A DNA stretch of 12,423 nucleotides from a virus (IMGVR_UViG_2778261176_000013:1-12423); one strand, 5' to 3'; positions 1,966-11,140 are shown, numbered from the stretch's first letter. A program made the numbers and translations. Notes: generated by a model not told the origin, from the sequence alone.

Positions 1966-2621
1966 TGGTTTCCTCCTTTGCGAAGCTGTTCCGCACAATC
2001 CAGCAGGGCGTCCGTCGCTTCTTTCACCGTAACGATGTCGCCATCGTCCAGCCCGACAACCGTCGCGTTCTTAACGAACACCGAGCAAAGGTCATTAAAC
2101 GCCTGCGCCCGCACTTCAGCCAGGCATTTGCGAAACTCGGAAACGTACTGTTCGACGCTCATTCCCCAGCTAAGTGGACATTCATTGAATGTTTCGCCTT
2201 CGTGCTCTTCATCAGGTAGCTCTTTGGTAAAGAACTCACGTTCAATGGCGTGGAGTGTGTCAGCAAAACGACGTAAGTTACTCAAACCTGTCGTAATGGA
2301 GAATTCAGGAGCATCACATCCGACGCCCATCTGCTGATAAACGGCGGTTTTGAAGGCCTTCAGCCCCGCATTCTCCGCCGCCAACGCCGAAAACTTCTCG
2401 TGTGCCAACTTAACAGCCGCATCAGCCTGCTTAATTGACTCAATCGCTTTCTGCTGGTCTTCGGCCAGCGCATTAGCACGCACCAGTTGCACTTCCAGTT
2501 GCGTTGCCAAATCGCTGATCAGCTTTGCCACACTGCGCATATCAACGGCACCACATTCTGCTTTCAGTTCCGAAGCCATCTCATGCCCGGCGGCAACTAA
2601 CCCTTTGATATTACTTTCCAT
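1962..2621 (-). CDS. Hypothetical coiled-coil prophage protein (219 aa)
   Basis: ATG at 2621 with GAGGGT 5-6 nt upstream. N-terminal half is Ala/Glu/Lys/Gln-rich (coiled-coil-like). Stop overlaps the start of the Ea22-like gene (translational coupling). Confidence 0.65.
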   Translation of the reverse strand: MESNIKGLVAAGHEMASELKAECGAVDMRSVAKLISDLATQLEVQLVRANALAEDQQKAIESIKQADAAVKLAHEKFSALAAENAGLKAFKTAVYQQMGVGCDAPEFSITTGLSNLRRFADTLHAIEREFFTKELPDEEHEGETFNECPLSWGMSVEQYVSEFRKCLAEVRAQAFNDLCSVFVKNATVVGLDDGDIVTVKEATDALLDCAEQLRKGGNQ

Positions 2622-2682
2622 CTTTACCCTCGCTTATCCACATAACTTATTGATTACATTGATAACTAAAAAGATCGTCGAT

Positions 2683-3027
2683 TCAGAACTCTTCGATGTT
2701 CCAGCCACCACCTGTTTTCTTTGGTTTAACCGTTACCCCGATGATTCGGAACGGATACTGATCTGCGGCGACTTTGGTTTTCACCCTGGCGTCGTCGGTC
2801 CAGAAACCTTTCACTTCGTGCAGTTCCATCTCTCCGGTGGCGAGCATCACAGCGAAATCTGGCGTATAGAACGTGTTGTCAGCTAACCGCAGCTTGATAC
2901 CCTCGAATCGATACCAGGCGATTTCCCCTGCACGTTTACGCAGCTCAAGGTGCTGGCAATACGCAGATTCAGTTTTGTTCATCTGGCCTGTTTTGAGTCG
3001 ACCAAGAGCCTGTATCTGTTTTCTCAT
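2683..3027 (-). CDS. DUF1064-like protein with PD-(D/E)xK-type motif (114 aa)
   Basis: ATG at 3027 with GAGGT upstream. Contains YTPDF...ELHEVKG, a PD-x(n)-ExK arrangement typical of restriction-endonuclease-fold nucleases. DUF1064 assignment is from memory. Confidence 0.65.
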   Translation of the reverse strand: MRKQIQALGRLKTGQMNKTESAYCQHLELRKRAGEIAWYRFEGIKLRLADNTFYTPDFAVMLATGEMELHEVKGFWTDDARVKTKVAADQYPFRIIGVTVKPKKTGGGWNIEEF

Positions 3028-3115
3028 GATTTACCTCTGAGGTAATTAAAAACCACATAAGACATGAAATCAATAGAGTTTATAATATTTTGTTACCTAA
3101 CAGGTAATTATCGAG
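3028..3115 (-). promoter_or_regulatory. Second PL-like promoter-operator cassette between the P-like and DUF1064-like genes
   Basis: Minus-strand reading: operator B (3093-3107), 19-bp gap, -35 TTGATT (3073..3068), 17-bp spacer, -10 TTTAAT (3050..3045), operator A (3031-3045) overlapping the -10 and the SD of the gene starting at 3027. Shares CTATTGA and ATTACCTCA with the PL-like region. Confidence 0.5.
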
Positions 3116-3119
3116 GCGT

Positions 3120-3139
3120 AAAAAAATGCGCTATCGCGC
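3120..3139 (-). terminator. Weak tR2-like intrinsic terminator immediately after the P-like gene
   Basis: On the minus strand GCGC-GATA-GCGC, then A, then T7. The stem is only 4 bp. Confidence 0.4.
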
Positions 3140-3144
3140 TGGTA

Positions 3145-3921
3145 TTACTTGATAAATCCTGCCGCCTTTCCCCGCCTGTATTCCTCCATCAGCCACTGCG
3201 CCGGTGTTATTCCCCCAAGGGTGGCGGCGTTAGGCATGCACCCGAAACTTCGCCCTGGTGGATGGTAAACGTCTCTCCCTGTGTCCGGAGGTGTACTCAT
3301 GGGCTCTGGCTTTGCCTGTATGCTGATCACCGGATCGGGTATCTGCTGTCCGGAAGCCACCTTTTTCGCCCAATCATCGAGCAGCCTGCGCGCGTGTTTC
3401 TCAACCTCAATCTCGCTAAGCTGGCGCTGATACATTGCACGGCGGGTATCACATACGACCCAGTACATAACCGGATGTCGCCACGGGAATCTTTCGGGAC
3501 CACCAGGATATAAACTTTTTTCCTTGCTGTACCGGTGAAACTCCGCCATCACATCGTCAATGGTGACGCCAAGAACCATCTTGCTGTCTTTGCACCACTT
3601 GATGAATTGCCCAGGCGACGGCCAGAACGGAGATTCACTGGCGCGGGCGTGGCGCATACCAGCGTTAACCTGTTCCATTGTTGTGATCCCATTCTCCAGA
3701 AACGCAAGCATCCATTGCTTACGGAATTCATTAAGTTTGTTCTGCTCCCTTATGGTCGAAACGCTTGCAGGAAATGCAGCCTGTAACTGGACAAATAGTT
3801 CATTGAAAATTCTAGCAACCTGCTCCTTTTTGCCATTGCTGTCACGCCGCTCTTCATGCACAGCAACACCATGCTCACGTAAGCGATCGTACTCATTGAG
3901 AAGTTCTGGAGTTGATTTCAT
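3145..3921 (-). CDS. Replication protein P-like (DnaB helicase loader)
   Basis: [44 protein letters not shown] closely parallels the lambda P segment [23 protein letters not shown]...PFLPSPGQFVAWC as I recall it. Start overlaps the end of the O-like gene, as in lambda. Confidence 0.85.
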
Positions 3922-4723
3922 CCCACACCCCTTCTATCCAGTCAGTGTTATTCCAGTCAAGCTCATCGCTTTTCCCGGCGTTTTTTGATTTTCCCCTGAT
4001 ATGATTTACGTGCCTGGCGAATTTTTGTTCCCACTGAACCTGCGTGAACACTTTGCCCTCAGCCATCCAGTAATCCCGGAATGCAGCAAGTTCAGCAGGT
4101 GTAAATTCCGGTTCCGGCAGGGCCGTTCCCCACAGCGCAGCACGCCGTCGAAAATCCGGCGACGGATGCCAGCCATCGGTCATCGGAAATTTCCCAATAG
4201 GTTCACTCAGGCCATCCAGAAATGCAGGTTCTGCCACCTGCAACGGCGTACCGTTCGCTTCACTGGTCGGATCACTCTCGCGCGCGTGCGCTATGTGTGG
4301 GGTTTTATATATATCTTCCTCTTCCTCTTCCTCTGGTAACTCCTTTTGTAACGCTGTTGGCGTTACTTTTTGCGTTACTCGTTTTCGATGCTCTGCCACT
4401 CTTCTATTCGTAAGTGCACGTTTTTTCGATGATTCTCCATTATGTCGCTCAAAGTTTGGAAGAATTAGTTTGCCGTCATGATAAGCAAGCCATCCGACGC
4501 TAATGAGGGCGTCAGCAAATCCTGTAATAAAAGCGAGTCTATCAAGTACTCCTTTTGTAACGCTGCCAGCGTTACCGTCTATTGTTTGCTGGTCAGCCCA
4601 TGCCCATATACGAACCAGCTTTCCAAGAACAGCATCTGGATCAATACCCAGAATTTCTGCTATCTGAAAAATTTCAGGTTTATCAGGAGTGATAACTTCA
4701 ACCTTAATCCAGCTGCTTGCCAT
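3893..4723 (-). CDS. Replication initiator / replisome organiser (O-like)
   Basis: Sits immediately upstream of and overlapping the P-like gene. Start trimmed to ATG at 4723 (AGAGGGGAAA SD); the ORF-track GTG at 4741 is less likely. Has an acidic linker (EEEEEED) and contains palindromic iteron-like DNA repeats. Confidence 0.75.
4341..4383. repeat. Iteron-like palindrome cluster inside the O-like gene (candidate origin element)
   Basis: CTCCTTTTGTAACGCTG-TTG-GCGTTAC, then TTTTT-GCGTTAC. Palindrome GTAACGC/GCGTTAC at 4348-4366 plus a third half-site at 4372-4378. Adjacent to (CG)4 at 4281-4288, AT-rich TTTTATATATAT at 4303-4314 and a (CTTCCT)3 repeat. Confidence 0.5.
4560..4585. repeat. Second copy of the iteron-like element inside the O-like gene
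   Basis: TCCTTTTGTAACGCTG-C-CAGCGTTAC; 19-bp perfect palindrome at 4567-4585. The shared 17-nt left arm is identical to the copy at 4341, but the two copies fall in different reading frames of the O-like ORF. Confidence 0.5.
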
Positions 4724-4916
4724 AGGTTTCCCCTCTTGCACTCTTTAGTGCACAAGCAAATTCATTACGATGGCGGTTGGCGCTATTCATTGCACATTCA
4801 ACACATGTTCCGTTCAGAACATACCTTTCAGAGAGATGGCCGTGACGGCACCGCTTTCCTGTGAAATAGCGATTTAACCCGGCTTTTGCGGCCTCCATTC
4901 TGGTTACTATCTTCAA
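4704..4916 (-). CDS. Small zinc-ribbon protein in the cII position (64-70 aa)
   Basis: Cys/His cluster CRHGH...CVEC. Lies between the cro-like and O-like genes. Start is ambiguous: TTG at 4916 (AAGGGG upstream) or ATG at 4898. Overlaps the O-like start by about 20 nt in another frame. Confidence 0.45.
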
Positions 4917-4994
4917 TTTTTCCGCCCCTTTTTGTTATTGATATTGGCTATTTTGCACAATTGGAAAATTTGATCAACCAGATTTGGTTTTTTA

Positions 4995-5009
4995 TTACCT
5001 TTGAGGTAC
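4995..5009. promoter_or_regulatory. Isolated operator-family site downstream of the cro-like gene
   Basis: TTACC-TTTGA-GGTAC (9/10 half-site match). Preceded on the minus strand by CATATCTATT, the same 10-mer found upstream of the PL-like -35. Confidence 0.4.
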
Positions 5010-5019
5010 GAATAGATAT

Positions 5020-5043
5020 GAAAAGACCGCCGGGTGGCGGTCT
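5020..5043 (-). terminator. tR1-like hairpin between the cro-like gene and the cII-position ORF
   Basis: Perfect 8-bp stem AGACCGCC / GGCGGTCT with a 4-nt loop, followed on the minus strand by TTTT then CATATCTATT. Confidence 0.55.
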
Positions 5044-5295: not shown

Positions 5296-5449
5296 AGCTA
5301 TTGCCTGATATTTATTTCAGATAATAAATATTCACCCATAAGGTAACAAAAATCAAGGATAGTTACCCATGAGGTGCATTTACCTGTTGGGTAATATTGC
5401 TTTAAATTGAATCATCTACTGATTCATATATGAGGCGATTTTCCAGAAA
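5296..5449. promoter_or_regulatory. Divergent repressor/cro control region (OR-like) with three operator-type sites
   Basis: Three sites of the ATTACC-N5-GGTAAT family: 5332-5346 (TCACC-CATAA-GGTAA, 9/10), 5363-5377 (TTACC-CATGA-GGTGC, 8/10), 5380-5394 (TTACC-TGTTG-GGTAA, perfect). Candidate minus-strand promoter: -35 TTGTTA 5349..5344, -10 TATTAT 5326..5321. Confidence 0.6.
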
Positions 5450-6034
5450 ATGAAAAGTATCCAGGACGTCCGCAGGCAAAATCTCAACGACTTGATCGAC
5501 CGTGAATTCAATGGTGTTCAGACGCGGATGGCAGAAAAACTTGGAACTCAGGCAAATCTGGTAAACCGCTGGGCTCTTGGCAAGAAGGTTATCGGCGACC
5601 AGGTTGCGCGAAAAATTGAAGCTGCCGCCAATAAACCACGTAACTGGCTTGATATCGATCGCTCGCTTTCTCAGGAAGGTTTTCAGCCTGTCGGCCCAAG
5701 CGACATTGGTCAGCTGGCGGCTCACAACCTGGAACGCTGGATGAGCGAAAGCCGCGACCTTTCAACTCAGGGAAAACTTCACCGCGCATCCGGCGTCGCC
5801 CAGGTGACAATCAGCCGCCTGTTAAACAATGAGGTCAGTGTTTCCATTTCCACCCTGGAGAATGTTGCATCAGCATTCGGGCGTCACGGCTATGAATTAC
5901 TGATTCACCCGCACGACCCTGCGACCATCAACTATGACCGCTCGCGCTACGCATTGTTACCCGAAACCGAGAAAGCAAAGATCGAAAGTTACATTGAATT
6001 TGTCATCAACCAGAACGAAAAAAACAAACAATAA
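5450..6034 (+). CDS. CI-like immunity repressor with two HTH domains and no S24 peptidase domain (194 aa)
   Basis: Two XRE-type HTH segments (GVQTRMAEKLGTQANLVNRW and ASGVAQVTISRLLNNEVSVSISTLENVASAF). No Ser/Lys autopeptidase region recognisable. Divergent from cro across an operator-rich intergenic region and followed by a strong intrinsic terminator. Confidence 0.7.
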   Translation: MKSIQDVRRQNLNDLIDREFNGVQTRMAEKLGTQANLVNRWALGKKVIGDQVARKIEAAANKPRNWLDIDRSLSQEGFQPVGPSDIGQLAAHNLERWMSESRDLSTQGKLHRASGVAQVTISRLLNNEVSVSISTLENVASAFGRHGYELLIHPHDPATINYDRSRYALLPETEKAKIESYIEFVINQNEKNKQ

Positions 6035-6055
6035 AATCATATTTTTCAGTAAGTA

Positions 6056-6078
6056 AGCCGCCTTCTGGCGGCTTTTTT
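6056..6078 (+). terminator. Intrinsic terminator downstream of the CI-like repressor gene
   Basis: AGCCGCC-TTCT-GGCGGCT stem-loop followed by a T6 tract. Confidence 0.75.
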
Positions 6079-6084
6079 ATTGCC

Positions 6085-6187
6085 TATACTATTACCTAAT
6101 GGGTAATTTTTTTAACTCATATCTATTGACACCAAACCAAATACGCATAATTATTACCTCAACGGTAACAGACCGAGGTAACAAGTT
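6085..6187 (+). promoter_or_regulatory. PL-like early promoter flanked by two perfect operators
   Basis: -35 TTGACA at 6126-6131, with a -10-like CATAATTA at 6146-6153. Operator G (6092-6106) lies 19 bp upstream of -35; operator H (6154-6168) abuts the -10 and covers the likely start site. Confidence 0.6.
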
Positions 6188-6340
6188 ATGCAGTGGAAAA
6201 TCATCAACGGTTGGTACTGCGTTACTGCATGCGGATTCATGAGCTGGAAGTTCCGCACCTTACAGGAAGGCATTAAGTGGGCTTTCGTCAGCAAAGAAGC
6301 TCGCGATGTGGCCAACGATAACGAGATATGGGAGGGCTGA
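6188..6340 (+). CDS. Hypothetical Trp-rich small protein (50 aa), first gene of the PL-like operon; not in the supplied ORF track
   Basis: ATG at 6188 with GAGG 9 nt upstream, 20 nt after operator H. Hand translation: MQWKIINGWYCVTACGFMSWKFRTLQEGIKWAFVSKEARDVANDNEIWEG. Stop TGA at 6338-6340, 2 nt before the next ATG. Confidence 0.45.
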   Translation: MQWKIINGWYCVTACGFMSWKFRTLQEGIKWAFVSKEARDVANDNEIWEG

Positions 6341-6342
6341 TA

Positions 6343-6642
6343 ATGAACGTTAATCAGCAGAAAAATCTTCAAAAAATCATGCTGGCATTCGACAAGGACT
6401 ACCGCCTGTCAGAACAGCTATATGACCGACAAGTTGAACTGATCGAGAGCATCCGGCTTCATCAACTAGCCTCAACTTTCGACGCTGTAACAGGTAAAGG
6501 CGTTCGCCAGGAAGTACTGGAGGCCGCTAAAGACAGTCCAGAGTTCGAAGAACTGATGGATTCCTACCGGCGCGAGGCAATGGCAATTATCGCCCGCTGG
6601 GATCTGGCGGATCAGCTTGATGGACAGAGGGACGCGGCATGA
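6343..6642 (+). CDS. Hypothetical protein (99 aa) in the Gam/RacC position upstream of the exonuclease
   Basis: ATG at 6343 preceded by GGGAGGG. Stop overlaps the exonuclease start (ATGA). No family recognised. Confidence 0.6.
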   Translation: MNVNQQKNLQKIMLAFDKDYRLSEQLYDRQVELIESIRLHQLASTFDAVTGKGVRQEVLEAAKDSPEFEELMDSYRREAMAIIARWDLADQLDGQRDAA

Positions 6643-9920: not shown

Positions 9921-10165
9921 AGCAGATTATGGTTGCACACAACGGCGTCAGGTTTGAAGTCGTCATGGTTTTGACTAAGTTCCACAATGATGAGGTATTG
10001 CACAGAAAAGAAACTGTAACTTACCGTTATAAACACCGCAGTTCAGCTGTTAGAAAATTACGGAAGATTGCGGAAGAACTAAAAAATGATCCTCATCGTG
10101 TTATTGAGGTAAAAGGCAACCCATATAAAATCAAAACTTCAGTGGAGCTAAGACATATGCAATAA
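9917..10165 (+). CDS. Hypothetical basic protein (82 aa), coupled to the methyltransferase
   Basis: ATG at 9917 overlaps the methyltransferase stop, with GGGAGCG upstream. Lys/Arg-rich. Followed by a 324-bp intergenic region with a terminator-like element. Confidence 0.5.
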   Translation: MKQIMVAHNGVRFEVVMVLTKFHNDEVLHRKETVTYRYKHRSSAVRKLRKIAEELKNDPHRVIEVKGNPYKIKTSVELRHMQ

Positions 10166-10296
10166 AATCACGCCTGACGAATCGCGATTATCTCGCTATT
10201 GGTATTGCAGAGATTGCTGGACTCAATGGCGCATGATTTGACAATGCCGCCAGAGCTATCGCATACTGACCGCACTAGAAAACAAACAGCGGTCAT

Positions 10297-10324: not shown

Positions 10325-10409
10325 ATGCCTGCAATCTGGCATAGTCACATCCGTACAAAGGTCGGGTGGAGAGGCGTAATACAACACCCGAAAGGGGAAT
10401 ATGCCCGGA

Positions 10410-10489
10410 GCTACTGTTTGTGCTCTAGTTGACACCCGATCACCAGTTACTAACTGGTTTTCGTAACTAAAAACAAACAGGAGGTCATC
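10410..10489 (+). promoter_or_regulatory. Antirepressor upstream region with TTGACA hexamer and a 15-bp perfect palindrome
   Basis: TTGACA at 10429-10434. Perfect palindrome CCAGTTA-C-TAACTGG at 10443-10457. No convincing -10 hexamer found by eye. Confidence 0.4.
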
Positions 10490-11140
10490 ATGACCAGTCA
10501 ACTCATCCCCGTATTCAACGGCACTATATCCAACGAAACCGCTCTTCTCGTTAATGCCCGTGATTTACACACTTTCCTCGATGTGGGTAAGCGATTTGCT
10601 TCGTGGATTGTCGAACGAATTGCTGAATATGGTTTCGTTGAAAATCAAGACTTTATGATTATTTCCCAAGTTCGGGAAAAAATAGGCAGAGGCCGTCCTG
10701 CAAAAGACTACCACCTCACCCTCGATACAGCCAAAGAGCTGGCGATGGTCGAGCGTAATGAAAAAGGTCGTCAGGTACGACGCTACTTCATTGAATGCGA
10801 GAAACGTTTAAGACAACAAGAAACAAAAGTGGAGAAGGTCTTGTCAGGCTTCATGCCCGCCATTATGGAGGCGATCAAGCTGGAAGACAAAAAAGAATAC
10901 AGTGCCCCACTGAAGCCCGGCTACCGCAGCCTGATTCACTCGCCGTCTGGTGTTCTCGGCCTGACGGAGAACTCACTGCTGATGAATCTGCTGAACCAGT
11001 TACAGGAAGACGGGCACGACGTATCGGGTGCGGCGGCGGAGCTGACCACCATGTTCTGCTACATCGTCGGTGTGAGCAAATGCCTGCGTGATATCCAGAC
11101 CCACGCGGAGTACATCAACGACAAGGCAGGGTTCTTCTGA
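10490..11140 (+). CDS. Phage antirepressor, AntA/AntB N-terminal domain type (216 aa)
   Basis: AGGAGG 7 nt upstream of ATG. N-terminal region (LIPVFNGT...ARDLHTFLDVGKRFASWIVERIAEYGFVENQDF...KDYHLTLDTAKELAMVERNEKGRQVRRYF) matches AntA/AntB antirepressor domains as I recall them. Confidence 0.75.
   Translation: MTSQLIPVFNGTISNETALLVNARDLHTFLDVGKRFASWIVERIAEYGFVENQDFMIISQVREKIGRGRPAKDYHLTLDTAKELAMVERNEKGRQVRRYFIECEKRLRQQETKVEKVLSGFMPAIMEAIKLEDKKEYSAPLKPGYRSLIHSPSGVLGLTENSLLMNLLNQLQEDGHDVSGAAAELTTMFCYIVGVSKCLRDIQTHAEYINDKAGFF

Follow-up and report, generated by a model that had tools for sequence, protein, structure and literature searches.

What allows the genes that lie past the replication genes of this prophage to be expressed? 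In lambda, the terminator tR2 sits just after gene P, ahead of the nin-type recombination and ea genes. The same problem of expressing genes past a terminator arises at the same genome position in the window, by which we mean the whole stretch of 12,423 nucleotides analysed here (IMGVR_UViG_2778261176_000013:1-12423). It covers the early region of a Uetakevirus prophage of the epsilon15/phiV10 type, and its region 2600-3600 shares 99.5% identity with Escherichia phage vB_EcoP_ZX5 (ZX5 below) and 97% with phiV10. Both phages belong to Uetakevirus, the genus of epsilon15-like temperate podoviruses. The rightward early genes are on the minus strand, and the repressor gene, PL and the leftward early genes are on the plus strand:

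5450-6034, plus strand: repressor gene (Rep), 194 aa (Pfam HTH_3; PDB 5D50)
6055-6074, plus strand: strong terminator after the repressor gene (terminator scan; -14.9 kcal/mol)
6092-6168, plus strand: PL cassette, behind the strong terminator at 6055-6074
beyond PL, plus strand: small genes, then RecE-type and RecT-type genes
5295-5065, minus strand: cro-like gene
4916-4704, minus strand: small early gene
4741-3893, minus strand: DnaT-domain initiator gene
3921-3145 (stop 3147-3145), minus strand: lambda P-like replication gene (Pfam Phage_lambda_P PF06992, E 1.7e-55)
3027-2683 (ATG 3027-3025), minus strand: DUF1064 gene, first of the downstream unit (Pfam E 3.5e-07)
downstream of the DUF1064 gene, minus strand: ea/nin-type genes, the last being NinX at 345-1

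The DUF1064 protein was assigned to phrog_190 (E 5e-43), which PHROG annotates as a Holliday-junction resolvase. From 3027 to position 1, the terminator scan returned no terminator-like sites on the minus strand.

Between the P-like gene and the DUF1064 gene lies a cassette of 115 bp (3139-3025, minus strand). The initial annotation had proposed that a second PL-like promoter-operator cassette follows the P-like gene, headed by a short minus-strand terminator at 3120-3139. Every element of this proposal was found in its place, including the terminator, though the latter is weak and minimal. The hairpin starts 5 nt past the end of the P-like gene, and the elements follow in this order:

3139-3120, minus strand: hairpin GCGC (3139-3136)-GATA-GCGC (3131-3128), then A3127 and T7 (3126-3120)
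3107-3093, minus strand: putative operator B (distal), TTACCTGTTAGGTAA, a palindrome centred at about -62 from the predicted start
3092-3074, minus strand: gap of 19 nt between operator B and the -35
3073-3068, minus strand: -35 TTGATT, within the conserved CTATTGA
3067-3051, minus strand: spacer of 17 nt
3050-3045, minus strand: -10 TTTAAT, overlapping operator A by its final T
3045-3031, minus strand: putative operator A (proximal), TTACCTCAGAGGTAA, a palindrome over the predicted start (about 3038) and GAGG
3037-3034, minus strand: ribosome-binding site GAGG, within operator A and six bases ahead of the ATG at 3027

The corresponding elements at PL are:

6092-6106, plus strand: distal operator, followed by a 19-nt gap
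6126-6131, plus strand: -35 TTGACA, followed by a 17-nt spacer
6149-6154, plus strand: -10 AATTAT
6154-6168, plus strand: proximal operator

The claim that the two loci share one geometry was borne out in the sequence: the operators are 62 bp apart from centre to centre in both, and 19 bp separate the upstream operator from the -35. The strings CTATTGA and ATTACCTCA, said to be common to the two, are present in both cassettes. We considered and rejected a recent duplication of PL as the origin of the cassette. Only functional motifs at equal spacing are shared, and the intervening sequence is not, so shared constraint is likelier than recent copying of PL.

To see how far this arrangement extends, we compared eight phages of Escherichia, Salmonella, Enterobacter and Klebsiella, picked by overall similarity and not by motif. 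Both operators were present exactly 62 bp apart in all eight, with variable centres, and the PL operators were 62 bp apart in seven and 63 bp apart in one. A scan of IMG/VR for paired palindromes yielded 75 distinct versions of the cassette and 64 of PL. Since such a scan fixes the half-sites by construction, we repeated it with anchoring on the hairpin and CTATTGA only. In this operator-independent set of 99 distinct versions, the half-sites were intact in 98 for operator B and in 97 for operator A. The non-consensus fraction per column was 0.002 in the half-sites. The centres varied far more, at 0.47 for B and 0.32 for A, and the fraction was 0.20 for the other columns between the operators and 0.29 for the ten bases that precede B. 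This pattern, which is expected of protein-binding palindromes, shows that both palindromes are under very strong purifying selection, and the less variable centre of A is in keeping with its second role as ribosome-binding site. Among complete E. coli genomes, 529 of 5,426 carried the cassette.

The palindromes are of a type that recurs in the window. With at most one mismatch allowed, the window holds seven copies of TTACCN5GGTAA where 0.21 would be expected; in 200 shuffles the count never got to seven. The cassette accounts for two of these sites, both exact TTACC-N5-GGTAA matches (3031-3045 and 3093-3107); PL and OR have two each, and the seventh follows the cro terminator. The two palindromes of the cassette are of the operator type of this phage's own repressor and are very probably Rep operators. 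Rep is a full-length homologue of SPC32H Rep (PDB 5D50, E 4e-42 over residues 1-190) and gave no match to a Pfam peptidase domain. At position 6, the distal operators of the cassette and of PL have the same base in 32 of 33 distinct loci, which perhaps represent two independent lineages. When IMG/VR was searched for a non-TTACC operator behind the same hairpin, as a swap of specificity in heteroimmune relatives would produce, the hits were only 14 ordinary terminators of no relation to the cassette.

Upstream of the cro-like gene, the OR region (5332-5394) holds three sites:

5380-5394: OR site
5363-5377: OR site with 2 mismatches
5332-5346: OR site with 1 mismatch

These sites surround PR, for which the -35 is TTGATT (5356-5351) or TTGTTA (5349-5344). 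Their centres at 5387, 5370 and 5339 are spaced by 17 and 31 bp; OR of epsilon15 is laid out alike (17 and 30 bp), and no repressor site is annotated there.

Part of this finding is already in the public annotation. The epsilon15 genome record NC_004775.2, which reportedly goes with Kropinski et al. 2007, marks seven 'protein_bind: repressor (lysogeny)' sites at ATTACC-N5-GGTAAT palindromes. Three are at PL, and one each lies before the small terminase, gp3 and tail fibre genes. A further annotated site, 35906-35922, is the homologue of the cassette's operator B, so the distal site was on record. The same record leaves unmarked the proximal operator, promoter and hairpin of the cassette and the OR sites. 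The palindrome is the same in epsilon15 and the dispersed sites annotated there correspond to those in ZX5, while the PL-equivalent geometry and the genus-wide conservation were worked out here.

Across the 39.6-kb genome of ZX5, we found 10 exact sites, where chance would give 0.05, and 4 more with one mismatch. All 14 lie between annotated genes, at about nine intergenic loci: PL, OR, after cro, the cassette, two sites before the small terminase gene, one each before the gp3 homologue, tail fibre and integrase genes, and two around a Bro-N protein that the ZX5 authors named anti-repressor. Beyond the part that corresponds to the window, palindromes are at 978, 2043, 2423, 8026, 19625, 19643 and 22756 of ZX5. 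Operator or promoter coordinates were not found in the text of the ZX5 paper. Judged from the placement of these sites, Rep appears to control many units directly.

One such unit follows the cro-like gene (4950-5043, minus strand):

5043-5024, minus strand: strong terminator (-14.6 kcal/mol)
5009-4995, minus strand: degenerate operator GTACCTCAAAGGTAA, with one mismatch
4977-4950, minus strand: TTGATC-16-CAAAAT, 17 nt past the degenerate operator

The layout of terminator, degenerate operator and TTGATC was kept in seven phages, which suggests a separate promoter for the replication genes at this place.

Within the cassette, the predicted promoter TTGATT-17-TTTAAT has 9 of 12 consensus matches and ranks 19 of 123,880 in the window by a position-weight matrix, compared with 2 for PL, 5 for PR and 25 for the element after cro; the matrix was built from consensus frequencies, and these ranks are indicative only. 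Nearly all sigma-70 promoters carry A as the second base of the -10. Here the -10 TTTAAT has T instead, and it is for this reason that a consensus scan did not call the promoter. The best -35 position was identical in all 75 distinct versions, at the same offset as in PL, and CTATTGA was present in 72 of these versions, which came from the operator-anchored search. The best sense promoter had a spacer of 17 or 18 bp, with TTTAAT in the E. coli type and TAAATT (18-bp spacer) elsewhere; the TAAATT lineages thus have the usual A at position 2 and T at position 6. The mean sense promoter score over the 75 versions was 10.8, versus 7.1 for shuffled spacers. Only 35% of versions exceeded the 95th percentile of the shuffles, a high score being not rare in an A/T-rich spacer.

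Two further features of the promoter region recur. At four predicted ZX5 promoters, PL included, -10 and operator overlap by one base, a T that closes the former and opens the latter. In the 19-nt gap, a YAAAATAT block is conserved at about -53 to -47, where PL has T7, and this block is possibly an UP-element-like A/T tract. The spacer also holds a TRTGG block (3051-3055, minus strand, in the window), which is found in nearly all versions of the cassette and is missing from PL; it did not fit an extended -10 in any register.

The hairpin forms the 5' edge of the conserved cassette. Its folding energy is -7.4 kcal/mol, compared with -14.9 for the terminator after the repressor gene and -14.6 for that after cro. 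The stem has 4 G-C pairs and is followed by the T7 tail; the terminator scan requires at least 5 pairs and for that reason passed over the hairpin. In the phiV10 record the hairpin is annotated as a putative terminator. Among 36 hairpin versions, GCGC-N4-GCGC-R-T7-AC was predominant, with a variable loop. As the stem is invariant, it offers no compensatory changes that would prove an RNA structure. With a hairpin this weak, termination may be slight; read-through probably adds to the output of the promoter, is not replaced by it and may account for much of the expression downstream.

We therefore had to weigh whether a promoter acts here at all. The palindromes could be genuine Rep sites with no active promoter between them, serving as a roadblock or as long-range Rep anchors, with the downstream genes expressed by read-through of the hairpin from PR or from the post-cro promoter. 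The weak hairpin agrees with this, as do the T as second base of the -10, the silence of the consensus scan and the fact that most versions score within the range of shuffled A/T-rich spacers. A pure roadblock, however, would have no need of a conserved -35, and CTATTGA stands 19 bp from the distal operator in nearly all versions, as the -35 of PL does, with the best -35 position never shifting. Moreover, the junction of -10 and operator is the same as at three other predicted ZX5 promoters, and the -10 of other lineages reads TAAATT or TATAAA. We consider a cassette devoid of promoter activity unlikely. It is more improbable still that the working promoter, instead of or beside the sense promoter, is the one that the scan did call on the opposite strand:

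3059-3086, plus strand: AAGACA-16-TATAAT, directed toward the 3' end of the P gene (10/12 matches)

Transcription from this site would begin at about 3093, within operator B, and give an RNA that is antisense to the 3' end of P and controlled by Rep. The site has a perfect TATAAT, ranks 22 of 123,880 by position weight and would place operator B at +1 to +15. Conservation speaks against it: over the 75 versions the mean score was 6.65 versus a shuffle mean of 7.07 and the positions shift, for which we rejected a conserved antisense promoter. As the antisense -10, TATAAT was seen in just 2 distinct versions from IMG/VR and TAGAAT in 21, every one of them belonging to the E. coli type. The plus strand also has no T-run terminator and no known RNA family at this place, Rfam giving no match at the cassette, and the antisense ORF 3064-3513 was treated as spurious after no family match in Pfam. 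We treat the plus-strand promoter-like site as a lineage-specific feature.

The edges of the cassette raise the further question of whether it is a mere recombination linker at a mosaic joint, with motifs that have no regulatory role. Homology with epsilon15 is limited to 3139-3025, and there the cassette lies between DnaT-type and RuvC-type resolvase genes. With SPN1S it sets in at 3140, and with Tyrion it stops at 3024, to resume past the downstream gene. The neighbours differ accordingly among phages, with a P or DnaT-type gene upstream and a DUF1064 or RuvC gene downstream. Since homology breaks exactly at the cassette edges (3139/3140 and 3024/3025), the unit from hairpin to start codon has been kept while the flanking genes were exchanged. 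An alignment with related prophages had been suggested as a check on whether the cassette is conserved or marks a recombination junction; it did both. Unrelated genes on both sides would suit a linker, but one maintained by recombination alone would not show so sharply patterned a variation, with 0.2% non-consensus per column in the half-sites and 20-47% elsewhere, and the same palindrome recurs at PL, OR and other intergenic sites. We regard a linker without regulatory function as very improbable, and a linker role would in any case be compatible with regulation. The first gene behind the cassette is either the DUF1064 gene (2683-3027, minus strand, in the window) or a RuvC-type resolvase gene (5113-5577 in L003, 4624-5088 in L006); unrelated genes with similar roles may thus occupy one slot behind it.

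From these comparisons, the cassette is probably an active, Rep-repressed promoter unit for the downstream genes. In the mechanism that we propose, the weak hairpin with its T7 tail would partly end the replication-gene transcript. About 80 bp further on, the sigma-70-type TTGATT-17-TTTAAT would start a new transcript near 3038, which would extend at least as far as the edge of the window and take in the resolvase-like DUF1064 gene and the ea/nin-type genes. The predicted promoter is bracketed by the two TTACC-N5-GGTAA palindromes, one at the start site and one at about -62, on what would be the same helix face. In the lysogen, Rep on both palindromes would close the promoter, and removal of Rep by the antirepressor would let it fire at the same time as PL, PR and the rest of the promoters under Rep control across the genome. 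With a Rep-controlled promoter of their own, the downstream genes would need no N-type antiterminator.

The SPC32H Rep/Ant switch (PDB 5D50, 5D4Z) offers the closest view of how Rep might act and is said to have been described by Kim & Ryu 2013 and Kim et al. 2016. SPN1S, used as a stand-in for SPC32H given near-identical BLAST matches for both, carries the same cassette. According to the account of SPC32H in a later paper, Rep is a tetramer on palindromic sites, with DNA-binding pairs formed across dimers (PMC9638917, summarising PNAS 2016), and a tetrameric antirepressor frees it from DNA (PMC9638917). Paired palindromes suit a tetramer that has two DNA-binding pairs. Rep would bind at the cassette and may bridge its sites, 62 bp apart.

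Dual-operator repression loops are known from lac O1/O3 and gal OE/OI. In these systems, too, a tetrameric repressor has one operator at the start site and a second, auxiliary one some 60 bp upstream that faces the same side of the helix. In the cassette, 62 bp corresponds to about 5.9 helical turns; the repressor is unrelated to the lac and gal proteins, and looping, like co-operative binding between the two operators, would follow by analogy. That one Rep tetramer bridges both cassette sites is possible, but we lean somewhat against it. More tentatively still, a single Rep tetramer, with DNA-binding pairs from different dimers, could clamp the palindromes at both PL and the cassette and enclose the entire polymerase-binding site in a very tight loop. 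The lytic programme of Uetakevirus would then be a one-repressor regulon of portable units without antitermination, in which the units double as module joints.

We also searched the window for components of lambda-type antitermination. The short early ORFs 6188-6340, 6328-6642 and 4704-4916 had no Pfam match and hit only PHROGs of unknown function, and none of their translations has an arginine-rich N terminus. No boxA (CGCTCTTTA) was present on the transcribed strands of the window. Matches with one mismatch numbered only 2, versus 2.7 by chance, and both are on the plus strand inside minus-strand replication genes. The earlier statement that the window has no recognisable N-like antiterminator or nut site was upheld as regards N-like families (Pfam, PHROGs) and, of the nut site, boxA on the transcribed strands. 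In view of the lack of N and boxA and of the repeated units, the early-right region looks like a series of separately repressible units and not like one antiterminated operon. Compared with lambda, it would have a separate repressible promoter behind a weak terminator, with no N-like protein or boxA found. The initial annotation had suggested that the nin-type genes are transcribed from their own repressor-controlled promoter rather than by antitermination. All that sequence comparison could address in this proposal was supported; as read-through probably contributes, 'in addition to' may fit better than 'rather than'.

This design has a counterpart in the P1 C1 regulon, which consists of many scattered, antirepressor-controlled operators and has no antitermination cascade. 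As with C1, one repressor would serve many promoters here (14 sites at about nine loci in ZX5; seven annotated in epsilon15). The operators of P1 are asymmetric 17-mers, and this phage differs from P1 in its palindromic operators, lambdoid gene order and podovirus virion. We know of no relationship between C1 and Rep, and the likeness is a design analogy only. Mycobacteriophage stoperators are also numerous, but they are asymmetric sites in one orientation inside transcribed regions. The sites described here are not stoperators, as they are palindromic and lie between genes. Several are located at a predicted -10 element: at least PL and the cassette have such a site, and the antirepressor region has two.

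The cassette is thus an ordinary, known kind of phage control element that was already annotated in part, and the general view of phage regulation is unchanged, dual-operator promoters and dispersed repressor regulons being well known. What it would explain is how very common enterobacterial prophages express their post-replication genes without a lambda-type antiterminator. It would also provide a compact, portable promoter unit that is switchable by a repressor. Together, PL and the cassette form a natural target pair for studying how tetrameric Rep engages two palindromes, and the exact mosaic joint at the cassette bears on module swapping among phages.

Elsewhere in the window, we noted two features of the neighbouring early regions. 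In the early-left region, just upstream of an ORF at 10490-11140, Rfam sRNA-Xcc1 (RF02221) was matched over the full model length (65.2 bits against a gathering threshold of 53, E 3e-10). Two promoter-like sites, among the best of the window, lie just upstream of this match:

10104-10131: promoter-like site
10238-10267: promoter-like site
10360-10449, plus strand: Rfam sRNA-Xcc1 match

Inside the DnaT-domain initiator gene are two 28-nt direct repeats with 89% identity, 209 bp apart:

4339-4366, plus strand: 28-nt direct repeat
4548-4575, plus strand: 28-nt direct repeat

Each repeat ends in a 19-bp palindrome (GTAACGCTG...CAGCGTTAC). By analogy with lambda O, the repeats may mark a replication origin within the initiator gene.
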